Source: an uncultured delta proteobacterium (GTDB taxonomy: Bacteria > Desulfobacterota > Binatia > Binatales > Binataceae). Taken from it: a stretch of 64,000 bases of DNA. Where the stretch lies: positions 3,488,001 through 3,552,000 of the forward strand of contig CAWEEQ010000004.1 in the NCBI GenBank assembly GCA_963808235.1, read 5' to 3'. The notes under the pieces were generated by a model, which was not told the DNA's origin, ran no database searches, and saw nothing but the letters and a program-made list of their open reading frames with translations. Positions 30,315-52,772 of this stretch are shown here, piece after piece. The first letter of the stretch is position 1, and each line of letters starts with the position of its first letter. Made by a program: the position numbers and the translations under genes.

Positions 30315-31842
30315 ATGGCATCGCCTCTCAATGTATTGTTTATCACCGCCGACCAATGGCGCGGCGAGTGTCTATCCGCGCTCGATCATCCCGTAGTTCG
30401 TACACCTAATCTCGATTCGCTGGCCGCCGAAGGAGTACTTTTCCGGCGTCACTTCGCCAATGCGGTGCCATGCGGTCCCAGCAGGGCGTCGCTTCACACC
30501 GGGATGTATCTGCAGAATCATCGTTCCGGAACCAACGGCACGCCGCTGGATGCGCGCCACACCAACTGGGCCAAGGAAGCTGCGGCCCATGGCTACGACC
30601 CGGTGCTATTCGGCTATACCGACACGAGCCAGGATCCCCGCGGTCTCGAGGCCGCCGATCCATGGCTCAAAAGTTATGAGGGCCCTCTGCCTGGCATCCG
30701 CCCCGTATGCTTGATGATTGGCACGCCGACGCCATGGACCGATTGGCTTAAGTCGCGCGGCTTCGACGTACCTGCGGATATTCGCTTCGCCTATGGCTAT
30801 CGCGAGCCAGGTCCGGACTATGAAGACGGAGCAGCGTACCCAAAGCCGCTCAAGTATCCCGCGGAATTCGACGACACCGCGTTCCTTGTCACGCAAACGA
30901 TCGACTACATGAAGAGCGCAAGCGGGCCCTTCATCGCGCACCTCTCACTCCTTCGCCCACATCCGCCCTGGGTCGCGCCCGCGCCATACAACACTATGTA
31001 TGATCCGGCACTCATGCCCGGCTTCATAAGATGTCCGACGCCCGAAGATGAAGCACGTCAGCATCCGTGGCTAGCGCATCAACTAAGTCGCCCTCCGTTC
31101 AGAGCTCCGGAAAAAGAGAAGAAGCTTCGGCGGTTTAAGGCCGTTTACTACGGACTCATAAGCAGGGTCGACGCCGAGATTGGGCGACTAGTTCACTTTC
31201 TCAAGGAGACCGGCCGTTGGAATTCGACGCTGATCATCTTTACTTCGGATCATGGCGAGCAGATGGGCGATCACTGGATGGTAGGTAAGTGCGGCTACTT
31301 CGACGGCTCCTATCACATCCCGCTAATCGTTCGCGATCCGCATCCGCAAGCCGATTCTGCCAGGGGCGCGAAAGTCTCGTCATTCACCGAGAACGTCGAT
31401 ATCATGCCGACGCTACTGGAAGCGATCGGCGCCGAAATTCCGGTGCAATGCGACGGGCGTTCGCTTGCTCCATTCCTCGGAGGCGCTGGACGTCCCGACA
31501 AATGGCGCAGCGAAGCGCACTGGGAGTTCGATTTTCGCGATCCTCGCGACAGTTCGACTGAGCAAAAGCTCGGACTCACGCTCCACCAATGCACGATGAA
31601 CGTCATAAGGAGCGATCGCTACAAATATGTCCATTTCACAAATCTGCCGCCGCTGTTCTTCGATCTGGAGAAGGACCCGAACGAGTTCGCGAACCTGGCG
31701 GACGTCGCCATCGTATGCGCCCCTAGTACTCGAGTATGCGCAGAAACTACTGTCATGGCGCATGAACCACGACGAACAAACGTTGACGCACATCATGCTT
31801 AGCGAAGGAGGTCCCATCTCGCGGCGCGCCGCGCGCTACTGA
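30315..31842 (+). CDS. Phosphonate monoester hydrolase / sulfatase family (PehA-like; frameshift near 31700)
   Basis: NVLFITADQWR, CGPSR formylglycine motif, RPHPP, TSDHGE, WEFDFRD, YKYVHF..LPPLFFDL; C-terminus YAQKLLSWRMNHDEQTLTH lies in a shifted frame ending at 31842. Confidence 0.85.
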
Positions 31843-31857
31843 ATCCGTTCCAGGTGG

Positions 31858-32676
31858 CTATGGCCGCTCTCCGCAACTCATCCGATTCTCGATCGCGTCG
31901 ATAGCAGCCTCGCAATCCGCGACTGCGTCGATCACCTGGTGCGCGCCGGCAGCTAACAGCCTGGTCCGCGCATCGTTCAGCCGACGCATCTTTTCCGCGG
32001 ATGTGAGCGCGGCAAAGTCCTCCGAGGACAGCCCAACCATGTTGCCGGTGCGCGCGACACCTATCGTCCACACTCCCGCTCGCAACCCTTCCTCGATGTC
32101 GATAGCAGTGTCTCCGACTTTGACGATTGCCTCGAGTGGTTCGACTTGTAGCTCGATAGCATTGGCGAAGATCATCCATGGATGCGGTCGTCCACCGCCT
32201 ACTTCATCCGGAGTAACTGCGCAGTCCGGATGGTAGCCTTGCTTCTCCGCGGGTCGCAGTACCAGGTCAAGCATCGCTCGCGTGTATCCCGTAGTACTTC
32301 CAATCTTGATTCCGCGTTTGCGCAAACGCGCAACAGCTTCCGCGACGCCGTCGATCACCTGCGAGTCGCTGACTAAGCACTCGAGTTGGAGCGGCACGAA
32401 ATCGGCGAACAGACTTTCTACGTCCGCCTCGCGCGGTTCTTCTCCGATAGCATTGCTCCATCGGCCCGAGACGCCACCCTCCAACAATATTTTCCGAATG
32501 TGATCCTTTTTGAGGACTCCCATGTCGCGCCGCGCTTCCTCCTCCGAGATGGAGACGCCGCGCCGCGCAAACACCTGTTGCAGCACGCGCACCGGCGCAA
32601 GGCTGCCGTGGTCTACGGTCGTTCCCGCCCAATCGAAAATGACGGCCTTCACCCTTCCTGAATACTTCGCAGTCAC
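31858..32676 (-). CDS. phnX: Phosphonoacetaldehyde hydrolase (phosphonatase)
   Basis: AVIFDWAGTTVDHGS.AP, MGVLKKDHI (Schiff-base Lys), STTGYT, GRPHPWM, KVGDT; GTG overlaps the upstream TAG. Confidence 0.93.
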   Translation of the reverse strand: MTAKYSGRVKAVIFDWAGTTVDHGSLAPVRVLQQVFARRGVSISEEEARRDMGVLKKDHIRKILLEGGVSGRWSNAIGEEPREADVESLFADFVPLQLECLVSDSQVIDGVAEAVARLRKRGIKIGSTTGYTRAMLDLVLRPAEKQGYHPDCAVTPDEVGGGRPHPWMIFANAIELQVEPLEAIVKVGDTAIDIEEGLRAGVWTIGVARTGNMVGLSSEDFAALTSAEKMRRLNDARTRLLAAGAHQVIDAVADCEAAIDAIENRMSCGERP

Positions 32677-33812
32677 TATATCGCCATCTCGCGAATCATC
32701 TGTTCCGCCAATCCGAACGACAGCGTCATCCCGGAGCCGCCGACTGCGGTAACGATGCGAACTCCGGGCGCGGCGTCGATCGCGACGTAGGATTTCTCCG
32801 GATGCCTGGCGTACACGCCGTACCATCGCTCTCCGATCGCGAGGTCCGGCGCAATCAGGAAGCTCCGCACATTGCGCATCACGAGCTCATCGATTTCGCT
32901 TTTGTTGAAGACATCCACGGCGAGACCATACTCGTGCGAATCGCCAAGCGTCAGCGCTCCATCCGCGGTCTGCGAAACCAGGGTATGAATCGCAAACCGA
33001 TCGTATTCCGCCATTTCGCGCGCGATTCGCGCCTTATATTTCGGCAATGTCTCGGTGCAAATTTCAAATGCCGGATAAAACCGCAACGTGAGTCCCGCGG
33101 CGAGCGACGGCCCAAGCTCCCACTTATGTTTCTGCGGCGCGGTACGCATCATCTGCAGCTTGCATCGATCGATTCCACTGTGCGCGAACAATTCCGGGTA
33201 GAGTGTTTCAAAATCGTCACCGCCGCATACAATCGCGTGGCCGGCCTCCCAGGTCTCCGATCCGGCGTCGACGCGCGGTAACTCAATCGATCGCACAACC
33301 GTACCAAAGCGTAACTGAACGCCAAATTTCTCAGTCAGAAAGGCCGGCAGCCGCGCTAGTATCTGTCGCGGATCGACGGTGAGTTCCGTTGGACTCCAGA
33401 TACCGCCAAGAAGCCCATCAGGATTGACGGCTTGGCTTCGTTTCAGCACTTCCGCCGGCAATAGCCACGCGCAGGTGTAACCCAAACTCGGCGCGCGCTC
33501 GACAAACTCGCGCCCCACCTCCGCCTCGTCACGATGATAAACCACGTGGAGCGAGCCGGTCGGACGATACGGCAATCCCGAGGCGTCCAAAATCTCCTGC
33601 CAGATTTGACGACTGCGCGTCGCCATCTGATGTATCGCGCCGGCTCTTTGTCCAATCGGCCAGATCATCCCGAAGTTGCGCACCGACGCCCCCTGCGCCC
33701 TGGGCGTGCGCTCGAACACCACCACCGACTTTCCGCGCTTAGCTGCGAAGTAAGCGTGCGCGAGGCCCAGGATTCCCGCGCCGACGACCGCCACATCTGC
33801 TTTTCGGATCAC
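32676..33812 (-). CDS. FAD-dependent oxidoreductase, TIGR03364 (HpnW/Pbf-like) aminophosphonate oxidase
   Basis: VVGAGILGLAHA, GASVRNFG, CKLQMMRT, GDSHEY, GGSGMT; coupled to phnX. Confidence 0.82.
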   Translation of the reverse strand: MIRKADVAVVGAGILGLAHAYFAAKRGKSVVVFERTPRAQGASVRNFGMIWPIGQRAGAIHQMATRSRQIWQEILDASGLPYRPTGSLHVVYHRDEAEVGREFVERAPSLGYTCAWLLPAEVLKRSQAVNPDGLLGGIWSPTELTVDPRQILARLPAFLTEKFGVQLRFGTVVRSIELPRVDAGSETWEAGHAIVCGGDDFETLYPELFAHSGIDRCKLQMMRTAPQKHKWELGPSLAAGLTLRFYPAFEICTETLPKYKARIAREMAEYDRFAIHTLVSQTADGALTLGDSHEYGLAVDVFNKSEIDELVMRNVRSFLIAPDLAIGERWYGVYARHPEKSYVAIDAAPGVRIVTAVGGSGMTLSFGLAEQMIREMAI

Positions 33813-33813
33813 T

Positions 33814-35606
33814 TCAGGCGCTTACAATCTGGGTAGCTCGTTCGATAGGTACTTGATCGGGATCAAGCAGCGCGGTTGTCGCTGCTTCTTCCCAATCCGA
33901 TCTTGGCAGCTCGAGCGGATCCTCCGCGCGTAAGCGATGCTCTACGACCATGCGCGCGAGGATCATCCGCCGCGCGTCATGCCCCTTTGCGCCCGCTGTC
34001 GCTCCTTCCCACGTCATCAGCGCCGCGCTCGCTACATTATATAGTGCGTCCGCCGCGAGCCGTGCCAATCGCTCATGCTTGGGCTTCGATGCGACCTCCG
34101 CTGCGAACGCGACTGCGCGATCGACCAGCTGCGCGATCTGCGCGCGAAAGCCGGCCGGCGCCGCGCTCGCGAGCTGCAGTTTCATTTTCAGTGCGCGCCC
34201 CAGCACCTCGTGACCGCCGGATTTGCCGACTGCGCGATTGATCACGTCGAGCGCATTGATATTGCTGGTCCCCTCCCACAGCACGCCGATATGCGCGTCG
34301 CGAATCAGCCGCGAGTTCACCCAATCCTCGATGTACCCGTTGCCGCCGCGCACCTCCATCGCGCCCGTCGCCACCTTGATATTGTCGCGGCACGCGCGGA
34401 ACTTCAGCACCGCCGTCAGGATTCGCATCACCCGCTCGGCTTCCGCGTCGCCGGCGCGCGCGCGATCCATCATGGTCGCATCGTAAGTGAAAACCGAAAG
34501 CGCCTGCTCAGTCGGCACCATCAGCTTCATCAACTGGCGCCTGAGCAGTGGATGCTCGATGATCGGCCGGCCGAACGCCGCGCGATTGCCCGCGACCTGC
34601 ATCGACTCGTTAAGGCATCGTCGCATCATCCCGGCCGCGCGCGCGCCATGCGACATCCGGCTCATATTGACCATGTCCATCATCTGCCGAGGCCTCGGTC
34701 GATTGCGCCGAGCTGATACGCGATTGCGCCCTCGAGCACCACTTCTCCACTCGCCATCGAACGCGTTCCGAATTTTTCCTTGAGCCGTGCGATTCGATAA
34801 TTGTTGCGCTCGCCGTTCTCCAGTCGCCGCGGCATGATGAAAAGCCCGAGCCCTCGCGAGCCCGCGGGCGCACCATCCGGCCGCGCCAGCAGCAGCACCA
34901 CGTCGCCGTCAACCGCCGAACAAAACCACTTGTCGCCGTAAAGCCGCCAGAAATCTCCCTCGCGCCTGGCAACCACCGCGCTGTTGGCGAGGTCGGATCC
35001 GCCCGCCCGCTCGGTCATGTATTGCGCGCCCTTGAAAATCTCGTCCATGTTTTGCGACAGCATGCGGCTTAAGTAACGCGCCTTGATATCCTCGCTGCCG
35101 TAGTTCTCCACCAGCACCGCGCCGGTATCGGTCACGCTGACCGGACACATCAGGCCAAACTCCGCCTGCACGAACAAATATTGAAACGCGTACTTCGCTA
35201 TATAAGGAAGCGGCTCCGGCCATCCGAGTACGCCCGCCCGATGCGCCATCGCATGGAGCCCGAATTCGCCGAACGCAATCCGTTCCATCTCGCGATACGC
35301 CGGATGAAACTCGACCCAATCCTCGTCGCGCCCAAACCGATCGCGCGGATGCAACACCGGCGGATGCTTGTCCGCAATCTCCGCCAGCTCGTCGAGCCTG
35401 CCGCCGGCAAGCTCGCCGAGCCTCTCGAGATGCGGCTCCATCGCAGCCCGCAACCGCGGCTCCATGTGCAGATCGAGCAAGGCACGCAGCCCGTGATCGA
35501 TACGATAGAAATTCATCCCCCGACAATCAGGCGCAACCAGCGCCGCCGCACTCTGATCGCTTCCGGCCTGGCGCGTTGCGAGTCTTTCGGGATTCACGGA
35601 TGCCAT
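33814..35606 (-). CDS. AidB-like acyl-CoA dehydrogenase (frameshift near 34690)
   Basis: QAEFGLMCPVS, MTERAGGSD, GDKWFCS, RLKEKFGTRSMASGE; second half NMSRMSHG, GGNGYIE, LWEGTSNI. Halves join as GL(R)QMM with one added base. Confidence 0.85.
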
Positions 35607-35705: not shown

Positions 35706-36662
35706 CTAACCCCTGAGTTTCGTTTCGAACTCGACCAGTAGCTGTGTGAACTGTTCCGGATGTTCGCCGTGCATCGAGTGCGGCATGCGCGGAAAGGACC
35801 TGTAGTCGATCGACTGTCCAGCGCGCGAAACCAGTTCGCATACGCGCTTTGCCTGCAGGTCCGAGGCAGCACCTAATAGGTAGCCTCCGTTCTCGTCGAC
35901 GTGGCGGAAATGATGCGTGTACAGCACCGGACATTTAACGCTGGCCAGCATCCGCGCGTGATCGCACCCGGCGTATACGGAACCCTCCCAGAAGGCGCGC
36001 GCCCATTCCGGATCGTATTCCTTGACGCGCTGCGGAATTTCGCCGGCCGGACCAAACATCATCGGAATTGCGCGCGACAGCCAGTCGGGAAGCTCGGTCT
36101 TTGCGGCTTCGAGCATTCCAGCCCAATCGCCGACGCTCCATTGGTCGCCCAGGTATTTGCTCATAAGTGCAAAAGTCGGCCCGATAGTTTGGCGGATAGA
36201 CGGCCCGCAAGAAGTATCGACCTCTGACGAGAACAACGGCGGATCTTCGTATACAGCGCCGCGGATCGTGCCCGGCATCTCGTACGCGGAAAGCCACGCG
36301 CTGATCACGCCTCCCGACGAGAGTCCGCTGACGATCACCGGCTGCCCGATAGCGAGCGCGATAAACCGCACCATGTCGTTGCCGAAGTTGTCGAGCGTAT
36401 AACGCCCCGGCGTCCTGCTCGATCTTCCCTGTCCCCGCAAGTCGACCGCGAACGCCTGGAAGTGCTCTTGCAGCAGACCCATTGCCTGCTCGTAGCCCCA
36501 CCACGATTCGGTCTGTCCCGGGATCAGCAACAACGCAGGCTTGTCGCGCGCTCCCGCCACCGCGTAGTTGATCACGGCCTCGCCGATGTCGATCGTTTGC
36601 TCCGGATAGGCGTGCGCGACGTAGGTCGCCGCGTTGTCGGGCCCGAACGGGAGTGGCTTCAT
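35706..36662 (-). CDS. Alpha/beta hydrolase resembling bacterial ZenA-type resorcylic acid lactone (zearalenone) lactonases
   Basis: PALLLIPGQTESWWGYE, VDLRGQGRS, YTLDNFGND.VRFIAL, GLSSGG elbow, LGDQWSVGDW, KEYDPEWARAF, LLGAASDLQA; these blocks match ZenA as I recall it. Confidence 0.78.
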   Translation of the reverse strand: MKPLPFGPDNAATYVAHAYPEQTIDIGEAVINYAVAGARDKPALLLIPGQTESWWGYEQAMGLLQEHFQAFAVDLRGQGRSSRTPGRYTLDNFGNDMVRFIALAIGQPVIVSGLSSGGVISAWLSAYEMPGTIRGAVYEDPPLFSSEVDTSCGPSIRQTIGPTFALMSKYLGDQWSVGDWAGMLEAAKTELPDWLSRAIPMMFGPAGEIPQRVKEYDPEWARAFWEGSVYAGCDHARMLASVKCPVLYTHHFRHVDENGGYLLGAASDLQAKRVCELVSRAGQSIDYRSFPRMPHSMHGEHPEQFTQLLVEFETKLRG

Positions 36663-37600
36663 GATCTTTCTCTTCGCAGACGCGGAAACAGCGCCTCGGC
36701 GTTGCCTCGATCGATCGATGCGCGTTGCGCGTCGTTCAGCGAGTAGCGCTCATACATCCCGGTGAACGCGCCGACTATAGGGTCCGCGGCATACGGCCAG
36801 TCACTTCCGTAGAGTATGTGGTCGGGCCGCGCAAACGCCATTAAGCTCGGCAGCGCCGTAGGACTCCCGGAAAGCGCGAGGTCGAAGTAGAACTTCTGCA
36901 ACTGCGCGAGTCCGTCCGCAAAATCCCGCTTCGGCGACGCCGCTCCAGCGATCCGATGCGCCGCGTACGGCACGAACCCGCCCGCATGCGACAGGATCAC
37001 TTTGATATCGGGACAGCGATCGAGCGTGCCCGATCCCGCCAGCCGCACTGCCGCGCGCGTCGTATCGAGCAGGAAATCCGCGATGTACGCCGGCACCCCC
37101 ACGAGCGGCTCAATCCCGTACAGCTGCGACGGATGCACGAACACGACGGCCTTGCGCTTGTTCAATTCGTCGAACAGCGGATCGAATGCCGGGTCGCCTG
37201 GATAAATCCCGCGGCTGTTTGCGAGGATAACGACGCCGTCGGCGTGCAGCTTGTCGAACGCATACGCAGCTTCGTCAATCGCTCCTTTGACGTCAGGCAG
37301 GGTGAGCGTCGCGAAGAATCCGAATCGGCTCGGATTCTTCCGCACCACCTCGGATGCGAACTCATTCACCTCGCGCGCCTTTTCGCGCGCCTCGACGTCA
37401 TCGCCCAGATGAACTCCCGGCGTCGATACCGACACGATCGCGGTCTGAATCCCGTACTTGTCCATCAGCGCGATCGCGGAATCGGCACTCCACTCCGGAA
37501 TGGGCAGTCCTCCGGCTTCGGCCCCCTTCCGCCGCAGCCAAGCCGCATACGACCCAGGCACAACATGCTGATGCGTATCGATACGTCGAAGAGCCGCCAT
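36659..37600 (-). CDS. Amidohydrolase_2 family decarboxylase (6-methylsalicylate/orsellinate decarboxylase-like)
   Basis: RIDTHQHVVP, WS..MDKYGI..AIVSVSTPG, VVFVHP, FLLDTTRA, ILSHAGGFVPY, YGSDWPY; ATGA overlap with the lactonase; GGAGG RBS. Confidence 0.78.
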   Translation of the reverse strand: MAALRRIDTHQHVVPGSYAAWLRRKGAEAGGLPIPEWSADSAIALMDKYGIQTAIVSVSTPGVHLGDDVEAREKAREVNEFASEVVRKNPSRFGFFATLTLPDVKGAIDEAAYAFDKLHADGVVILANSRGIYPGDPAFDPLFDELNKRKAVVFVHPSQLYGIEPLVGVPAYIADFLLDTTRAAVRLAGSGTLDRCPDIKVILSHAGGFVPYAAHRIAGAASPKRDFADGLAQLQKFYFDLALSGSPTALPSLMAFARPDHILYGSDWPYAADPIVGAFTGMYERYSLNDAQRASIDRGNAEALFPRLRRERS

Positions 37601-37736
37601 GTCGATCCTCCCGACCAGTCGCAGCAAAGCACCGCGGACCAGAATACCTCGCTCGTTATTTTATGGGAGAGGTGGCCGACCACCAGGCGGTCGGTAGGTG
37701 AGGGTTCTGCGGAGAACGAGCCCGCCACCCGCCGTT

Positions 37737-37772
37737 GTTGACTGTCAACTTTCATCCTGTTATGTATACAAT
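37737..37772. promoter_or_regulatory. Promoter/operator region of the RHH gene
   Basis: Palindromes GTTGAC-T-GTCAAC (37737-37749) and TGTATACA (37763-37770); TTGACT at 37738 and TACAAT at 37767, not canonically spaced. Confidence 0.45.
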
Positions 37773-37795: not shown

Positions 37796-38221
37796 ATGCC
37801 GACGAAAAAGCAGAAGCCCACCGATTTATCGAGCGATACCATCGTGGTTTCGTTTCGTGCTCCGCGTGATTTGGTTAACCAGCTAGACAAATTCGCTCTG
37901 GGAGATCAGCGCACGCGGGCAAACTTCATCGTCCGCACCCTAACGCAAGCAGTCACGCTCGAACCGGCAATTCAGGTGATTGAGCAAATTCTCCCCATGC
38001 TTGTCGAGGAAGACAAGAGAGACTCCGGTAGCATTCAGACCGAATACAATCGGGGGCTAATGATGGGTGCTCGATGGGTTATTGAAGCGTTCTTTGGAAA
38101 GCGTGCGATCCGCTGGGTCAACCAGAGGGTCCGCACGCGCACCGGTTTGCCAATGCCTCACGCGATTGCACTCGCCCGCGACGGCAATCGCTATGGATTC
38201 GATTCCGAAGCGGACTTTTGA
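37796..38221 (+). CDS. Ribbon-helix-helix (CopG/Arc-like) protein with C-terminal extension
   Basis: IVVSFRAPRDLVNQLDKFA...RTRANFIVRTL beta-alpha-alpha pattern; AGAGG RBS. Confidence 0.7.
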   Translation: MPTKKQKPTDLSSDTIVVSFRAPRDLVNQLDKFALGDQRTRANFIVRTLTQAVTLEPAIQVIEQILPMLVEEDKRDSGSIQTEYNRGLMMGARWVIEAFFGKRAIRWVNQRVRTRTGLPMPHAIALARDGNRYGFDSEADF

Positions 38222-38232
38222 GGCAGTTCTCC

Positions 38233-39051
38233 ATGGGACAGCTTGGGATAGGATTGGTGGTCATTCTTTTCGCAGCTCTCTCCTCGTCCATGGCATTAGA
38301 GGCTGAAAGCGTTCCCCCATCCAGAACCAAACCCCCATCAAGCTTTCAGGTCTATGGCAAGGACGGCAGTGAGGTCTTGAGCGCCGAGTGCGCGCCAATT
38401 GCTCCAATTGATCCCGGTCTTCCTCAGAAGGAGTGGGAGTCTCGCCGAAATGCTGCAATCGCCGTGTCCTGTGATTTTCTGGACCTCAGAATCAACGGTC
38501 CTGATCTGAAGAAGACCGAAGCATCAAGAGCTGAAATGGAGAGCGCGTTAAAGAAGCCCGATGCGCTTCCGACGCCCGACAAGGAGATGTTGCAGAAAAT
38601 ACGGGACAAGTTGAACGACAAAAGCATAGGACCAAAAGAAGCAGACTTCCTAAAGCGCCTGCTTGTTGCCGAGAGATCGAACGACCAACGGTCAATTGTC
38701 AGTCTGATCCTGGATATGGACCGCAGGACGTGCGGGATTTACGCACAGGATTTTTCGGTCGATTTTAAAAAAATTGGCGAGACCACTTGGGTTAGCGATG
38801 GTTCTCCCCAGGGACTTTGCAAGATGGTATCAATCTACAAGCTTGAGCGCGGCAGTTTTGATGGCGATTGGACCCTCACACAAACCAATTTGGCGGTCGG
38901 AGGACCGAGGGGCTCGATCTGCGATGATTTGCGGAAGGGACTAGATTCCACTCCCGAGGTTTTCGGAGGCGAAGACTCGCGGAAGAACTTTGAATTCCCC
39001 TGTGACTTCATCGACTGGACAGGCAGTTCGAGCGCGTTCCTTCACCGATAA
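38233..39051 (+). CDS. Hypothetical secreted protein with six cysteines
   Basis: Hydrophobic signal-like N-terminus (LGIGLVVILFAALSSSMA), six Cys, low GC. Confidence 0.65.
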   Translation: MGQLGIGLVVILFAALSSSMALEAESVPPSRTKPPSSFQVYGKDGSEVLSAECAPIAPIDPGLPQKEWESRRNAAIAVSCDFLDLRINGPDLKKTEASRAEMESALKKPDALPTPDKEMLQKIRDKLNDKSIGPKEADFLKRLLVAERSNDQRSIVSLILDMDRRTCGIYAQDFSVDFKKIGETTWVSDGSPQGLCKMVSIYKLERGSFDGDWTLTQTNLAVGGPRGSICDDLRKGLDSTPEVFGGEDSRKNFEFPCDFIDWTGSSSAFLHR

Positions 39052-39066
39052 TGTAGTATCTCTCCA

Positions 39067-40020
39067 GTGGATCCTTTTGCTCGAATTTTCACGCCCGACA
39101 TTATTGACAAGATGCGTGTACGCGCTGTCAACACACGTAATGCCGATTTTAGGTACAGGGTTGTTTCAGTACCACAAAGAATGGCCGATAAAGAGGTTGA
39201 CTGGCACAGCCGGGATTTCGAGTTGGAATTCCTGCGCGAAAAGCAACGGAAGTGGCGCGAATGGATTGGTGTGGCGTGGAACTCCGGGTTTTTTCAGGAG
39301 CCCTACGGCGGTGATCTGAGAAGCAGGCTTGCCGGAAAGGATGACGATGGGTTTCGTTCGGCTCTAGGAGAGTGCATGGCCTGTTGGGCACTGTCTCAAG
39401 ACCTGCGGATGAGCGTGAGTCCGAGACCCAAAGGCAGGGATGCTTGCGTGCTTGAATTGTCGGTCGAAACGGAACGCGGGGAGATTCACGTAGAGGTTAA
39501 ATCTCCAAGACTCGTTGAGGACTCGCGCTCGTCAGATGGCGACATCACAGCTAGCGATGGAGGAGCCTTCGATGCCCGTTGGGCCGTCGAACCGCTTAGC
39601 CGTGCATTACAATCTGCAAACAAACAGTTTTCAGATGGGTGCCAGAATGTCTTGATATTGGCGTTGCCAGAATTGTCCGATGGTCCTGTCGGAATCTGCT
39701 GCGACAATTGGCCTTGGTCGCTGATCCAATCCTTTTACGGAGAGGAGCGATTGGTCACGCCTCCCATGGGCCAACCTGTTAGCAAGTTCTTTCCAAACGG
39801 TCACTTCTTGAAGCAGTTCGCGAGTGTTCCACGCTTTACTCGAACTAGCGCCGTGGTTGTTGTAGAGGATCTGGGTTGGTACCCAAGACTCCAGACTGTC
39901 GTCCTGCACAATCCCTACGCGAAATACTTAACATCCGCATCAACGTTCGGTGACTGGCGACAGCTAGTCCCTCATGAAGGTGAGTTGCGTTGGAGCACGG
40001 AACGGTTGATTCGCGTGTAG
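39067..40020 (+). CDS. Hypothetical protein, putative PD-(D/E)XK restriction-endonuclease-like fold
   Basis: SALGE helix, IHVEVK motif, SANKQF, VLHNPYA; the PD position reads VLE. Confidence 0.5.
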   Translation: MDPFARIFTPDIIDKMRVRAVNTRNADFRYRVVSVPQRMADKEVDWHSRDFELEFLREKQRKWREWIGVAWNSGFFQEPYGGDLRSRLAGKDDDGFRSALGECMACWALSQDLRMSVSPRPKGRDACVLELSVETERGEIHVEVKSPRLVEDSRSSDGDITASDGGAFDARWAVEPLSRALQSANKQFSDGCQNVLILALPELSDGPVGICCDNWPWSLIQSFYGEERLVTPPMGQPVSKFFPNGHFLKQFASVPRFTRTSAVVVVEDLGWYPRLQTVVLHNPYAKYLTSASTFGDWRQLVPHEGELRWSTERLIRV

Positions 40021-48118: not shown

Positions 48119-49106
48119 CTAAACGGATCGCAGGAGCGCTTGAGCATTGCGTTCGAGGATTTTCGCTTCGTCGTCGCCGCTCAGTTTGAGGGCTCTGACT
48201 TCCTCCACAGGATGAGCGAGACCGGCCGGCAGCGGATAGTCACTGCCCAGCACAAATCTATCTGCCCCGTAAGTCTTTACCAGGTGGCCAAGCATTTCGC
48301 GGTTGTGCGCGATGACATCGAAGTAGAACTGCGACAAGTAAGTCGACGGCGGACGCGGAATCGCGTTGCGGCATTCGGGAACGAGCCGGTATCCCATATC
48401 GAGTCGCCCCACCAATGCGGGCAACGCTCCGCCCGCATGATAGAGAACGACGCGTAGATTAGGATGGCGTTCGAGCACTCCGCCATAAATCAACAGCGCG
48501 GCAGCGAGTCCGGTGTCGTAAAGATTGCCGACCAGGTTGCCGAGGAAATATCTGGAAAGCGCTCCAGTCGGCGCTGCTTCAAACGGATGGATACAAACCG
48601 ACCATCCCCAGCGCCTCCGCAGCTTCCCAGAAGATCTCGAAATCTGACTCATCAAGCTGACGCTCAAGGACTTTCGGCGGAATCTCGACTCCACGAAGTC
48701 CCAGCTTCGCGGCGCGCTCCAGCTCCTTGGACGCTGCGCCCGGATCCTGAATCGGCACCGATGCCAACGGTACGAAATGAGCGGGATCGCTGGCTCCCAG
48801 AGCCTCCATCGCATCATTGTTGACTTGCGCGATCGCTAGCCCAAGGCTGGCATCGACATCCGGGTACATCAAAAACGGAACACAAGATACGGCCTGCGTC
48901 GCGATGCCCTCGCGGTCCATGTCCGCGATCCGTGCGCGCGCATTCGAGATAGGTCCGTCGATCGGACGCATCGCCTTTTCCTGGATCATGAAGAAGCGGC
49001 GGCCGTCGCGCTCGACGACCCTGGTTGCGAAGTGCTTGCCTTCGCGGATCAGAAAATCGATCACCTCAGGCGCGACGAAGTGATTGTGCATGTCGATGAC
49101 GTTCAT
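48119..49106 (-). CDS. Amidohydrolase_2 family (ACMSD-like decarboxylase), frameshift near 48598
   Basis: IDMHNHF, QVNND, FWEAAEALG then (shifted) VCIHPF, HAGG, LGSDYP. Confidence 0.82.
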
Positions 49107-49132: not shown

Positions 49133-49624
49133 TTACAGGATGAAACTGATTTTCCCGTGCGGACGAAGGGCCTCGTTATCAAGGATGGCTCTTCGCTGCC
49201 GAATTTTCAGATTGCTCCCCATACGCGCAAGCTTGTAGTCATAGCGGCCGATATACGTATCCACCGACTCGTAGCGCATCCGATAGACGGCAAAGTTCGC
49301 GGTCGCGAAAATGTCTTCGCCCTCAGCCGCAATCACGCGCACGTTGGATATCATACGCCGGGTGCGCGACCGTGGATTTTCCGACCACGCCGACTTGCCT
49401 AGTAGCTGCTTGACGCGAGATCGAATTCGCACCGCATCGTCGGCTATAATGAACAGCGTGTTCCGTGAGTCACCCTCGGGAACGTCGGTCGGTGGGATTT
49501 CGTAAGTCGCGTCTTCGGTAAGAAGCTCGAGCCATTCGTCGAGCCGCCACTCGTCTAGAAGCGCGGCCTCCTTGTATAATAGGTCTTCTACTTCATCGCG
49601 ACTGGGCAGGTCGGTGTTACTCAC
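49133..49624 (-). CDS. Aromatic ring-hydroxylating dioxygenase beta subunit
   Basis: VEDLLYKEAALLDEWRLDEWL, SENPRSRTRR.ISNV; GTGA overlap with the alpha subunit. Confidence 0.92.
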   Translation of the reverse strand: MSNTDLPSRDEVEDLLYKEAALLDEWRLDEWLELLTEDATYEIPPTDVPEGDSRNTLFIIADDAVRIRSRVKQLLGKSAWSENPRSRTRRMISNVRVIAAEGEDIFATANFAVYRMRYESVDTYIGRYDYKLARMGSNLKIRQRRAILDNEALRPHGKISFIL

Positions 49625-50913
49625 GCCGCTTTCCTCGCGCGCCTTACTTGAGGCTCCGTCATGAGCTGATTCCACCTACGCCAGAAAGCGCGCATCTGCA
49701 GTTCGTCGGTGATCGACGGATGCTCGCGCTTCATGCCGCGCGAAATGTCGGACCATCCGACCTCACGATTGGCAAAGCCGCGCTGACATGATTCGAGCAT
49801 CTCGACGTCGTCCGGCGTCGCGAATCCTCCGGGGCCGAGGAAGGTCAGGAAGTTGTCCAGGCGCAGTGCGGAATCTTCGGCGCTCTCTTCGGCCGGCGCC
49901 AACGCCCACGCGTTCACCTCCATGTAGTCGGGTGACACCGGATAGAAAGTGCGCACCGTGATCGCCATAATGTCATTGATTACGAGATTAGGAAAAATTC
50001 CGAGATTGCGGCTGGTCTCACAGATGCGACGCGCCCTCTCGGGACCGAAGCGATCGTCGAATCGGCGCCGCAACTGTTCGAAGTGCGTTTTGCGATGCTC
50101 TCCGAACGGCGCTACCCAGTGCGCGATCGGGCGTCCCCACGCGCTCTGATATTCCACCACCGCGTGACCGTTGCCGAGATCGACCGCCTGCTGACTCTTC
50201 GGCGAGGACAGATTCATGTTTTTCAAATCGACGCCGATGTCTCCGAGAAAACTGAAGTAGCGCTGATGCGTCGGCAGGCCGTGATAGCCGTCGTAACTAT
50301 TCTCTACCAGCAGCTTCCAGTTGGCGCGCGCGCTGTATGACTGCTGACCCGCTACGATCTTCATTCCTAATTCGGACTGATCGACTACCAGGTCGAGATA
50401 CTCTCTTGCCCCGGCCAGGTAGTCATAGAGGCTTTGCGCAGCAAGGTCGAAGCAGGCGAATATGAATCCGCGGTAACTATCCACCTGAGGCGGGGTAGCT
50501 AGCCCCATTTCATCGCGCTTAAACGCGTCGCTATAGGAGTCCTCACCTGGCACTCCAACCAGTTGGCCTCGCGAGTTGTAAGTCCATGCATGGTAAGGAC
50601 ATTGAAATGTCCGCGCGTTGCCGGACTTCTGCCGGCAGACCAGCGACCCACGATGCGTGCAAGTGTTAAGGAGGACGCGCACCACGCTGTCATCGCCGCG
50701 AACCAGGATGAGCGGGTGGCCTGTTACAGTCCTGGAGCGATAGTCACCCGCGTGCGGAACCTCCGACTCATGACCTACATATATCCAGCACTTATCGAAG
50801 ACCCGCCGCCGCTCCTGCGCGAGGCATTCGGGATCGGTGAAGGCCCGTCGATTCACGCGAAACAGTCCCGCGTCCTCATCATCGATGATAAAGCTCTCGG
50901 TAGATTTATCCAT
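49621..50913 (-). CDS. Rieske aromatic ring-hydroxylating dioxygenase alpha subunit (p-cumate/benzoate-like group)
   Basis: Rieske CTHRG...CPYHAW, NWKL..ENSYDGYH...TH, ATPDDVE. Confidence 0.93.
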   Translation of the reverse strand: MDKSTESFIIDDEDAGLFRVNRRAFTDPECLAQERRRVFDKCWIYVGHESEVPHAGDYRSRTVTGHPLILVRGDDSVVRVLLNTCTHRGSLVCRQKSGNARTFQCPYHAWTYNSRGQLVGVPGEDSYSDAFKRDEMGLATPPQVDSYRGFIFACFDLAAQSLYDYLAGAREYLDLVVDQSELGMKIVAGQQSYSARANWKLLVENSYDGYHGLPTHQRYFSFLGDIGVDLKNMNLSSPKSQQAVDLGNGHAVVEYQSAWGRPIAHWVAPFGEHRKTHFEQLRRRFDDRFGPERARRICETSRNLGIFPNLVINDIMAITVRTFYPVSPDYMEVNAWALAPAEESAEDSALRLDNFLTFLGPGGFATPDDVEMLESCQRGFANREVGWSDISRGMKREHPSITDELQMRAFWRRWNQLMTEPQVRRARKAA

Positions 50914-50922
50914 ATTGCCTCT

Positions 50923-51735
50923 CTACTCGTCCGACGGATTCCACGCCCAGTAACTCGCAATCGCGCCGGCATCAACGCGCAAATCGGTTCCCGTGATCAT
51001 GCCCGCGTCGTCCGACGCGAGAAATACCGCAGCGCGTCCGTAGTCGCGGGGACTCGGCAGCTTTTGCATCGGCACGCGGGTGCGAAATGGCTCGAAAGCC
51101 TGCTTGAGTCGCTCTTCGTTCGGAACCTTGCGGCCCCACCTTGCGGCGCGATCGAGCGACTCCGACGGATCGGTCGCGGTCGGCGTCAGGCTGTTGACGC
51201 GGATGCCATGCGCGACCAGCTCCATCGCCGCGGAGCGCGTGAAATTCAGCAACCCACTCTTGGCCGTGCAGTACGCGATGTTGTTCGGCTCGCCCTGATG
51301 CCCCGCGGTCGAAATAATATTGATGATGCTGCCTTTGCGATTCTGTTCGATCATCAACTTCGCCACGTGCTTGGTGAACAGGAAAGCGCCGGTCAGAATG
51401 ATCTCGAGTTGACGCTGCCATTCATCGAGCGGCATGTCGATCACTCCCTTCTTATTGAAGATCGCCGCGTTGTTCACCAGGATGTCGATTCCGCCCAATG
51501 ACTCGCGCGCGGCGGCGACTGCGCCGTCAACCTGGCGCTCGTCGGTCACATCGCACGTCAACGCGATCGCGCGACCGCCTACGCTTTTGATGTAGCGCGC
51601 GCAGTCGGCGGCATTTTCGGCGCGCGAATCGACGCACACGAGCGCCGCGCCCTCGGCCGCAAGACCCTCGGCAATACCGCCGCCGATATTCGTGCTGGTT
51701 CCAGTCACCAGGGCCACTTTCTCACTCAGTTTCAT
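50923..51735 (-). CDS. SDR oxidoreductase (candidate cis-dihydrodiol dehydrogenase)
   Basis: ALVTGTSTNIG, NNA, YCTAK; located next to the dioxygenase. Confidence 0.85.
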   Translation of the reverse strand: MKLSEKVALVTGTSTNIGGGIAEGLAAEGAALVCVDSRAENAADCARYIKSVGGRAIALTCDVTDERQVDGAVAAARESLGGIDILVNNAAIFNKKGVIDMPLDEWQRQLEIILTGAFLFTKHVAKLMIEQNRKGSIINIISTAGHQGEPNNIAYCTAKSGLLNFTRSAAMELVAHGIRVNSLTPTATDPSESLDRAARWGRKVPNEERLKQAFEPFRTRVPMQKLPSPRDYGRAAVFLASDDAGMITGTDLRVDAGAIASYWAWNPSDE

Positions 51736-52772
51736 CGCGGCGGCGCCATCAGAAAACACTTCGAGGAATTGAAAATCCACGTATCGATGAATTCAGTGTC
51801 CGCCGGCTTGCGATGAAGCTCAGCGAGAGCACCGGCCAGGCACATCCAATTGAGAATTTCCTGCTGGCCGCTTGCTTCGACTGATGCCGCCGGATAATTC
51901 CGCCACGCGTCGTAGTTGCCCGCGCGCAACGCGTCGAACAGCGTGCGATCCGCGGGCGTATCCGGATACAGGAAGTGATTCTTTTGCGTGAGGAAAGCGT
52001 GCGACCAACCCGACGACGCCATCAGCGCGACCCGCCACGGACTATCCGCAAAGATGCGCGCGGTTGCGGCGCCGAGATCAAATAATCGACGCGGCGTCGG
52101 CGCAGGCGGATCGAGTTGTGCCTCCGAAGGTGGATTTTCAAACATCGGCAACCCGCCGCGCTGCGCGATCACTCTGCGCCCATAGCAATTGATTGCGAAT
52201 GGAATGATCGGATACGGAAACCCCTTGCGATCGTAGTCGAGGAACATCACCGCGTTGGCGAACGCGTGACCGAGCGGATGATGCAGCGGCTTGTAGGAGT
52301 AGGCCGCGTCGAACCCCGCCTCGATCAGGCCGTTGGCAAGAAATTTGGCGGCGGCCACGTTGCCCGAGGAGCGGAATTTTTTCCCGGCCGGCTCATTCCA
52401 GATATTGTTCGCCGGCGGTCCGAACTCAAAGGAATCGTGCGCCAGGATGCAGTAAGGCGGGATCACGTCCTCGCGGAAATTTTCGTACTGATCGTCGCCC
52501 CACACGACGATGAAATCGGGATGAAACTCGTCGATTTGCGCGCGCGCCTTGCGCAGCGATTGAAGCAGACGCTCGCGATGCTTCCGCGCGGAGGTGACGC
52601 CTTCGTCATTGCCCCACTCCGCGCGCATCGCCTCCGGCCAATTCTCAGCGCTCCGATATTTTTCCGGCAGATGCGGATTCTGGAGCATCCGCTTTAGAAT
52701 CCACGCCATCGCTTCGTCACGTCCGGCGAGCGGCGGATAGTGGGTAATTCCAATCGCCAGGATCTCACCCAT
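51732..52772 (-). CDS. LigB-type (class III) extradiol ring-cleavage dioxygenase
   Basis: MGEILAIGITHYPP, PDFIVVWGDDQYE, GHAF, ASSGWSH, GQQEILNW. Confidence 0.8.
   Translation of the reverse strand: MGEILAIGITHYPPLAGRDEAMAWILKRMLQNPHLPEKYRSAENWPEAMRAEWGNDEGVTSARKHRERLLQSLRKARAQIDEFHPDFIVVWGDDQYENFREDVIPPYCILAHDSFEFGPPANNIWNEPAGKKFRSSGNVAAAKFLANGLIEAGFDAAYSYKPLHHPLGHAFANAVMFLDYDRKGFPYPIIPFAINCYGRRVIAQRGGLPMFENPPSEAQLDPPAPTPRRLFDLGAATARIFADSPWRVALMASSGWSHAFLTQKNHFLYPDTPADRTLFDALRAGNYDAWRNYPAASVEASGQQEILNWMCLAGALAELHRKPADTEFIDTWIFNSSKCFLMAPPR

Follow-up and report, generated by a model that had tools for sequence, protein, structure and literature searches.

The window analysed here, a stretch of 64,000 nucleotides of contig CAWEEQ010000004.1 from an uncultured, soil-dwelling member of the Binataceae (GenBank assembly GCA_963808235.1), contains on its minus strand the gene of a ZenA-family alpha/beta-hydrolase (35706 to 36662, 318 amino acids), predicted to act on esters or lactones. 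This gene is overlapped at its start by that of an Amidohydro_2 protein (36659 to 37600, 313 amino acids), hereafter the partner, which is a candidate metal-dependent, non-oxidative hydroxy-aromatic acid decarboxylase. We propose, with a probability of roughly 60% for the reading as a whole, that the two genes are co-translated and serve as an entry module to the degradation of ortho-hydroxy aromatic acid esters, in which the hydrolase would act first and the decarboxylase second. This proposal is built on the family memberships of the two proteins, the conservation of their catalytic residues, the translational coupling of the genes, and their co-inheritance in related genomes.

The ZenA-family hydrolase and its Amidohydro_2 partner

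The hydrolase was evaluated by a sequence search of the Protein Data Bank (PDB), and it was found that the four distinct top matches are all ZenA entries, namely 8cln (E 1.4e-109) and 8clp (E 1e-108) for the Streptomyces coelicoflavus enzyme, and 8clt and 8clu (E 1.6e-107) for the 'zearalenone lactonase' of Rhodococcus erythropolis. The match spans residues 8 to 314, whereas the best alpha/beta hydrolase in the PDB that is not a ZenA had an E-value of 8.5e-11. A first-pass annotation, made from the DNA letters alone, had recognized ZenA in eight motif blocks, and this recognition was borne out: PGQTESWWGYE, DLRGQGRS, YTLDNFGNDMVRFIAL, SSGG, AWLSAYEMPG, LGDQWSVGDW, KEYDPEWARAF and LLGAASDLQA are all found in the translation and align one-to-one with both 8clt and 8cln. 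On sequence grounds, the product of 35706 to 36662 is a true member of the ZenA family.

The homology to the solved ZenA lactonases (8clt and 8cln) is full-length and includes the active site. Residues S115, D140 and H295 of the hydrolase align with S128, D153 and H303 of ZenARe, which form the Ser-His-Asp triad of ZenA with the Asp located after beta-strand 6 (PMC10913051, cited here and below from the part of its text that was available). The second serine of the double-serine elbow (S116) and the oxyanion and ligand glutamine (Q50) are conserved, and the ligand-contact residues Q50, F164, F224 and F203 are kept (Q63, F177, F232 and F211 in ZenARe). In the ZenA structures the resorcylic moiety is tightly bound and the macrocycle is flexible, and zearalenone was hydrolysed by all eight of the eight soluble ZenA homologues assayed (PMC10913051).

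A tblastn comparison with the ZenARe-type gene that Rhodococcus plasmids carry gave an identity of about 53%. Relative to ZenARe, the hydrolase has Met202 in place of Leu210 and an insertion of 5 to 6 residues that lengthens the cap lip. It also has Gly49 and Gly56 in place of Glu62 and Ser69, so that Gln50 follows a glycine (PGQT) in a GX-like, canonical context, whereas ZenARe and ZenAScfl have Glu at the preceding position. The ZenA oxyanion Gln without a preceding Gly is a motif stressed as 'uncommon' in PMC10913051, which also denies strict conservation of the Glu62/Ser69 pair.

The partner matched the Pfam family Amidohydro_2 (PF04909) over residues 7 to 306, with an E-value of 5.5e-30 and 105.6 bits relative to a cut-off of 26.4. 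Its nearest sequence in the PDB was 2f6k (E 1.6e-43, 31% identity), a Lactobacillus plantarum LP2961 'amidohydrolase II' from structural genomics that has the same N-terminal HxH as the partner. The next matches were gamma-resorcylate decarboxylase (gamma-RSD; 3e-23) and the 5-carboxyvanillate decarboxylase LigW (5.8e-21), followed by the 2,3-dihydroxybenzoate (2,3-DHBD), iso-orotate (IDCase), ACMS (ACMSD) and salicylate (SDC) decarboxylases; the hydratase LigJ and the C-C hydrolase LigY matched only at 1e-7 to 1e-9. An AlphaFold (AF2) model of the partner, built on 55 homologues and with a mean predicted local distance difference test (pLDDT) value of 96.7, was compared to known structures with Foldseek. 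The first entry was again 2f6k, with a template-modelling (TM) score of 0.91, and the entries after it were mostly decarboxylases, with query-normalised TM scores of 0.76 to 0.86 to gamma-RSD, LigW, IDCase, 2,3-DHBD, ACMSD and SDC; the uncharacterised amidohydrolases 3nur and 3ij6 were found lower down.

H10, H12, H156, H205 and D267 of the partner are each found in at least 90%, or in all, of the 55 homologues. H156, H205 and D267 (the last in a DWP motif) align with active-site residues of gamma-RSD, and their equivalents, together with the TIM barrel, are common to gamma-RSD (2dvt, 4qro/3s4t), LigW, 2,3-DHBD, IDCase, ACMSD and SDC. According to the available part of the PicC preprint, the set HxH (or ExH)/His/His/Asp defines the Amidohydro_2 decarboxylases, with HxH as the N-terminal motif of ACMSD and HndA, whereas gamma-RSD has EEH. 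From the alignments and the model taken together, the partner is probably a metal-dependent aromatic-acid decarboxylase of the ACMSD superfamily, although it is only 20 to 26% identical to the decarboxylases of that family and has His-x-His where gamma-RSD has Glu-x-His.

The first-pass annotation had credited the partner with the motif set of 6-methylsalicylate and orsellinate decarboxylases. The fold and catalytic residues of an Amidohydro_2 decarboxylase were indeed found, but the Glu5/His7 ligand pattern that is described for the lichen orsellinate decarboxylase in the available text on that enzyme was not, the corresponding residues of the partner being His10/His12. The name '6-methylsalicylate decarboxylase' that JGI gives to some close homologues of the partner is an automatic label only, and the names of cluster members retrieved for 10 representatives were likewise automatic. 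We also considered that the partner might be PicC (3,6-dihydroxypicolinate decarboxylase), and this was ruled out because PicC, as described in the same part of its preprint, is 45% identical to gamma-RSD and has the EEH motif, whereas the identity of the partner to gamma-RSD is only about 25%.

The two genes overlap on the minus strand by the four bases ATGA at 36659 to 36662, which are shared by the TGA of the partner and the ATG of the hydrolase (...agatcATGAagcc...). This stop/start overlap, a sign of translational coupling, had been reported in the first-pass annotation and was confirmed base by base. The longest open reading frame (ORF) of the partner extends from 36659 to 37627 with a TTG start at 37627, whereas the ATG at 37600 gives a protein of 313 amino acids; the latter start, which was also the one originally given, is favoured because a Shine-Dalgarno-like GGGAGGA (37606 to 37612, minus strand) precedes it with a spacer of 5 nucleotides. 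Therefore, 36659 to 37600 is the likely extent of the partner gene. Each gene of the pair is present as a single copy in the source genome (4.59 Mb in 4 contigs, 93% complete). Among the sequencing runs listed, none of RNA contained the stretch, and of 11 entries that contain part of it, none had half or more of its words.

Distribution of the pair and gene neighbourhoods

The impression from the letters that the host is not an actinobacterium was correct: the nearest ZenA homologues, with 78 to 87% identity, come from metagenome-assembled genomes (MAGs) that bear the labels Binataceae, Candidatus Binatus or 'delta proteobacterium'. From this family, 121 evenly sampled genomes were surveyed with thresholds of E <= 1e-60 for a ZenA homologue and at least 75% identity for a partner orthologue. 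A ZenA homologue was found in 33 of the 121 genomes, the unpublished genome G064 being one of the 33 (22 of 77 among those of good quality), and a partner orthologue in 13, and in each of these 13 genomes the orthologue abuts the ZenA gene directly upstream. The 20 other genomes of the family that matched the partner had only paralogues of 39 to 48% identity, located elsewhere. In this family sample, the partner orthologue was not encountered without ZenA, and ZenA often occurs without the partner. The baseline for such a neighbour is about 25 PF04909 places in the 4.59-Mb source genome; we give no P-value for the pairing because related genomes are not independent.

The best 80 ZenA-homologue loci were also compared, 3 of which have less than 1 kb of upstream sequence. 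At 15 of the 80, a partner of 66 to 84% identity lies directly upstream on the same strand (one is cut by a contig end). Five loci have a more distant Amidohydro_2 gene (32 to 55% identity), on the same strand and within about 2.1 kb upstream; these are from Nonomuraea (two), Actinomadura and two alphaproteobacterial MAGs, and they belong to separate ZenA clades. Another five have weak or opposite-strand Amidohydro_2 matches that are possibly due to chance. C-terminal remnants of the partner (26 to 72 residues, 64 to 77% identity) were found 10 to 20 bp before ZenA at loci L009, L027, L036 and L037, and because they persist directly before ZenA, these remnants suggest that several lineages of the Binataceae lost the partner through deletions.

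In the ZenA tree, a Binataceae-type clade of 36 rows holds 12 paired and 4 remnant loci, and its sister clade has paired or remnant loci in 4 of 8 rows, basal branches included. In the partner-family tree, the genes linked to ZenA fall into a single supported clade (15 of 18 rows); a further small group, from Nonomuraea, and two outliers on long branches are also seen. Related genomes thus inherit the two genes together, and the pairing is real but not universal. The suggestion in the first-pass annotation of a module-like unit is in keeping with the position of every family orthologue of the partner beside ZenA.

Two Nostoc MAGs (L111 and L119) and an Acetobacteraceae MAG (L118) have near-identical partner homologues, with branch lengths of 0.014 to 0.037 and differing phylum labels; this likeness could be due to recent transfer or to a binning artefact. 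A 547-amino-acid Amidohydro_2 and hydrolase 'fusion' in another MAG (P0051) was rejected as most likely a frameshift artefact, the junction and the C-terminal sequence being garbled.

Phenol hydroxylases of three types recur among the neighbours of ZenA homologues: an ACAD-fold HsaA-like oxygenase at 16 loci, a FAD_binding_3 ring hydroxylase at 7, and an HpaB-type enzyme at 7. In the Binataceae-type MAG locus L010, a divergent TetR gene is followed by four overlapping genes that encode an HsaA-like oxygenase, a BphC/HsaC-like extradiol dioxygenase, the partner, and ZenA. The alphaproteobacterial MAG locus L061 has on one strand genes for TetR, a VOC dioxygenase-like protein, a FAH-family hydrolase, a FAD_binding_3 hydroxylase, an Amidohydro_2 protein (40% identity) and ZenA (59%), and the Nonomuraea locus L054 has an AMP-ligase, a partner (54%), a ring hydroxylase and ZenA (70%). 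At the site of the pair, the source genome has the two-gene module only.

Loci of partner homologues were collected with a close 14-sequence alignment (a single-sequence search found 7 loci). Those without ZenA adjoin hydroxylases, extradiol dioxygenases and DmpF/DmpG-type meta-pathway genes, and are also near genes for TctC- or MFS-type transport and for LysR or TetR regulators. Loci L104 and L106 consist of TetR, an ACAD-fold oxygenase, a BphC-type dioxygenase and the partner, with no ZenA. Because of this gene order, the decarboxylase-hydroxylase-dioxygenase trio may be the core module, to which ZenA would be an ester add-on.

A ZenARe-type locus is available for comparison on plasmid NZ_CP014942 of Rhodococcus sp. 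BH4, where zenA is about 99% identical to 8clt over 285 compared residues (E 4e-196). The gene order is FAH-family, VOC, acetoacetate-CoA ligase, zenA, SDR and thiolase, with a FAD monooxygenase and two regulators upstream; that is, zenA is set among aromatic-catabolic genes (FAD monooxygenase, VOC, FAH), as at related ZenA loci. The hydrolase of the window has a Binataceae host and is coupled to an Amidohydro_2 gene, whereas ZenARe-type enzymes are from Actinomycetia and this locus lacks Amidohydro_2. The BH4 gene set resembles the bacterial orcinol pathway, which has a hydroxylase, a ring-cleaving dioxygenase and an acylpyruvate-type hydrolase. Class A flavoprotein hydroxylases can decarboxylate oxidatively, and a separate decarboxylase could be unnecessary at the BH4 locus. 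Decarboxylation in BH4 may be spontaneous or oxidative.

Proposed pathway and alternative explanations

In the first step of the proposed pathway, the ZenA-type serine hydrolase (S115-H295-D140) would cleave an ester to yield a free hydroxybenzoic acid. The likely substrates would be 6-substituted beta-resorcylic (2,4-dihydroxybenzoic) esters, for example the resorcylic acid lactones of fungi or polyketide esters related to them. Beta-resorcylate is the likeliest acid because the ring-binding residues are kept in the hydrolase, and within the hydrolase-then-decarboxylase reading we give this specific class of esters slightly less than an even chance. In the second step, the carboxylate and ortho-hydroxyl groups would be chelated at the metal site of the partner (H10, H12, H156 and D267), with H205 as the catalytic residue, and CO2 would be removed without oxygen to give a resorcinol-type phenol. 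In genomes that have the longer operons, the phenol would then be hydroxylated by the phenol hydroxylase and cleaved by the extradiol dioxygenase, and the FAH-family hydrolase would follow.

Two-step hydrolysis and decarboxylation has long been known for lichen depsides, in a lichen and fungal route that consists of an orsellinate-depside hydrolase (EC 3.1.1.40) and then an orsellinate decarboxylase (EC 4.1.1.58). This eukaryotic route has the same chemical logic, ester hydrolysis followed by non-oxidative decarboxylation of a 2,4-dihydroxy-6-alkylbenzoate. To our knowledge, there is no gene-level pairing of a lichen or fungal orsellinate decarboxylase with a ZenA-type hydrolase. The Cladonia uncialis orsellinate decarboxylase, with metal ligands Glu5/His7/His150/Asp274, belongs to the same metallo-hydrolase superfamily as the partner (available part of PMC12967840).

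Several observations weigh against the proposed module. Hydrolysed zearalenone decarboxylates spontaneously, albeit slowly (available part of PMC10913051). No Amidohydro_2 gene was found within 9 kb of the BH4 zenA gene, so a dedicated decarboxylase is not required for ZenA function. Conservation of the gene neighbourhood, which the first-pass annotation had named as a check, was upheld in part: the pairing recurs at 15 of the 80 ZenA loci and for 13 of 13 family orthologues, but such a gene is absent from the locus whose zenA is about 99% identical to ZenARe. Those 15 loci are the only ones among the 80 with an adjacent orthologue, and 51 of the 80 have no Amidohydro_2 gene; 20 of the 33 ZenA-bearing genomes of the family lack a partner orthologue; and ZenA is absent from 69 and present at 11 of the best 80 partner-homologue loci (48 to 84% identity). 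No gene of the source genome is closely orthologous to the L010 oxygenase, the top match having 32% identity, and the nearest counterpart of the L010 dioxygenase (41%) is located elsewhere. The partner matched none of the NCBIfam models, its closest solved relative, 2f6k, is a protein without known function, and the Amidohydro_2 family also includes hydratases and C-C hydrolases (LigJ and LigY). Furthermore, because of Gly49 and the cap-lip extension of 5 to 6 residues in the hydrolase, the substrate may have an alcohol moiety unlike that of zearalenone.

These observations bear on three other explanations. The adjacency of the two genes might be a historical linkage in one lineage, with unrelated substrates and no common pathway. 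Most of the paired loci are in one related clade, so that their counts are not independent, and many homologues of each gene stand alone; however, the ATGA overlap speaks directly for coupling, the 13 family orthologues of the partner are without exception beside ZenA, more distant Amidohydro_2 genes adjoin ZenA in Nonomuraea, Actinomadura and an alphaproteobacterial MAG, which fall into separate clades, and the baseline density of PF04909 genes (about 25 places in the 4.59-Mb genome) is low. We regard simple linkage as very improbable. It is also quite unlikely, although less remote, that the partner is a hydratase, lactonase or C-C hydrolase that acts elsewhere in the pathway, for example on a ring-fission product. 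This would accommodate the LigJ hydratase and LigY hydrolase among its PDB matches (1e-7 to 1e-9), its uncharacterised nearest structure, and its lack of an NCBIfam match, but named decarboxylases far outscore hydratases and hydrolases in the sequence search, the Foldseek entries nearest after 2f6k are decarboxylases with 3nur and 3ij6 further down, and the L061 operon already has its own FAH-family hydrolase, as L010 and L061 have their own dioxygenases.

The remaining alternative retains a hydrolase-decarboxylase module but assigns it to esters of other ortho-hydroxy aromatic acids, such as salicylate-, naphthoate- or gentisate-type acids, or to esters derived from plants or lignin, and we consider it unlikely, though less so than the other two. 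In its favour, the HxH motif of the partner is common to ACMSD and to HndA, the 2-hydroxy-1-naphthoate decarboxylase, and not to gamma-RSD or the lichen orsellinate decarboxylase (as far as the available texts on these enzymes describe them); the cap lip of the hydrolase is 5 to 6 residues longer than that of ZenA; and the L010 neighbours are HsaA/HsaC-like, i.e., enzymes for bulky phenols and catechols. On the other hand, the residues of ZenA that contact the resorcylic ring are kept in the hydrolase, and zearalenone was accepted by 8 of 8 soluble ZenA homologues (available part of PMC10913051).

Neighbouring genes and significance of the pair

An AidB-like acyl-CoA dehydrogenase (33814 to 35606, minus strand; Pfam AidB_N plus ACAD_M and ACAD_1) lies 99 bp downstream of the hydrolase gene and is split into two ORFs of 308 and 289 amino acids with an ATGA junction at 34680 to 34683. 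The orthologue (at least 90% identity) is one frame of 592 to 595 amino acids in 6 genomes of the same genus, and the split gene is either a frameshifted pseudogene or the result of an assembly indel. It is probably outside the module. A scan of the 99-bp gap behind the ZenA gene revealed no site resembling a terminator, so read-through into the downstream genes is possible. The region 30315 to 33812 encodes a phosphoric/sulfuric ester hydrolase of PehA type (522 bits, short of the 900 cut-off), a TIGR03364 HpnW-type FAD oxidoreductase (408 bits) and the phosphonoacetaldehyde hydrolase PhnX (340 bits), the last two above their cut-offs, and resembles a gene set for 2-aminoethylphosphonate utilisation, lying immediately downstream of the strand run of the pair. 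The HpnW-like oxidoreductase and PhnX, like the AidB-like dehydrogenase, were considered as module genes but were treated as unrelated, because other loci do not keep them beside ZenA.

Upstream of the pair, the divergent intergenic region contains a perfect palindrome, GTTGACAGTCAAC (37737 to 37749, no strand), which is a possible operator. Beyond it, the plus-strand region 37796 to 40020, divergent from the pair, has a low GC content (0.53 compared to about 0.60) and three ORFs without Pfam or NCBIfam matches; by eye, the first (141 amino acids) has a ribbon-helix-helix-like N-terminus and the second a signal-peptide-like start. This stretch may be an acquired islet. A second Amidohydro_2 gene (about 48128 to 49097, minus strand) likewise appears to be broken into two adjoining pieces, next to genes for the alpha and beta subunits of a Rieske ring-hydroxylating dioxygenase and an SDR protein (near 49133 to 51780). 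The split AidB-like and Amidohydro_2 genes hint at assembly indel errors.

ZenA is a feed enzyme in use against the mycoestrogen zearalenone. As given in the available part of PMC10913051, its homologues were earlier found mostly in Actinomycetia, and its native substrate was left open by the discoverers. The word 'decarboxylase' is absent from that paper, and the available part of a 2025 review of zearalenone-degrading enzymes contains no occurrence of 'decarboxylase', 'gene cluster' or 'operon'. Neither an enzymatic decarboxylase for hydrolysed zearalenone nor a ZenA-decarboxylase cluster was found in open-access papers and preprints, patents and subscription papers being outside the scope of the search; the sole 'decarboxylase' match in the zearalenone literature, in the text available, was ornithine decarboxylase.

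The present results extend the known range of ZenA from mainly Actinomycetia to the Binataceae, in which 33 of the 121 genomes sampled have a homologue, and to further soil phyla, and they provide in the partner a candidate for the second-step enzyme after ZenA-type hydrolysis. Nothing in the proposed chemistry is mechanistically surprising; the value of the comparative genomics is that the conserved pair and the longer operons, with their hydroxylase, extradiol dioxygenase and FAH hydrolase, turn the natural pathway of ZenA into a testable hypothesis. More tentatively, and with rather less confidence than an even chance would imply, the native role of ZenA may be the first step of an undescribed bacterial pathway for fungal or lichen beta-resorcylic esters, in which the partner-type clade would be a dedicated 'alkylresorcylate decarboxylase' that would render the decarboxylation of hydrolysed zearalenone enzymatic, and an HsaA-like or FAD-type hydroxylase, an extradiol dioxygenase and a FAH hydrolase would finish the ring, as in the L010 and L061 operons; in soils, this pathway would then have a major and so far overlooked reservoir in the Binataceae.

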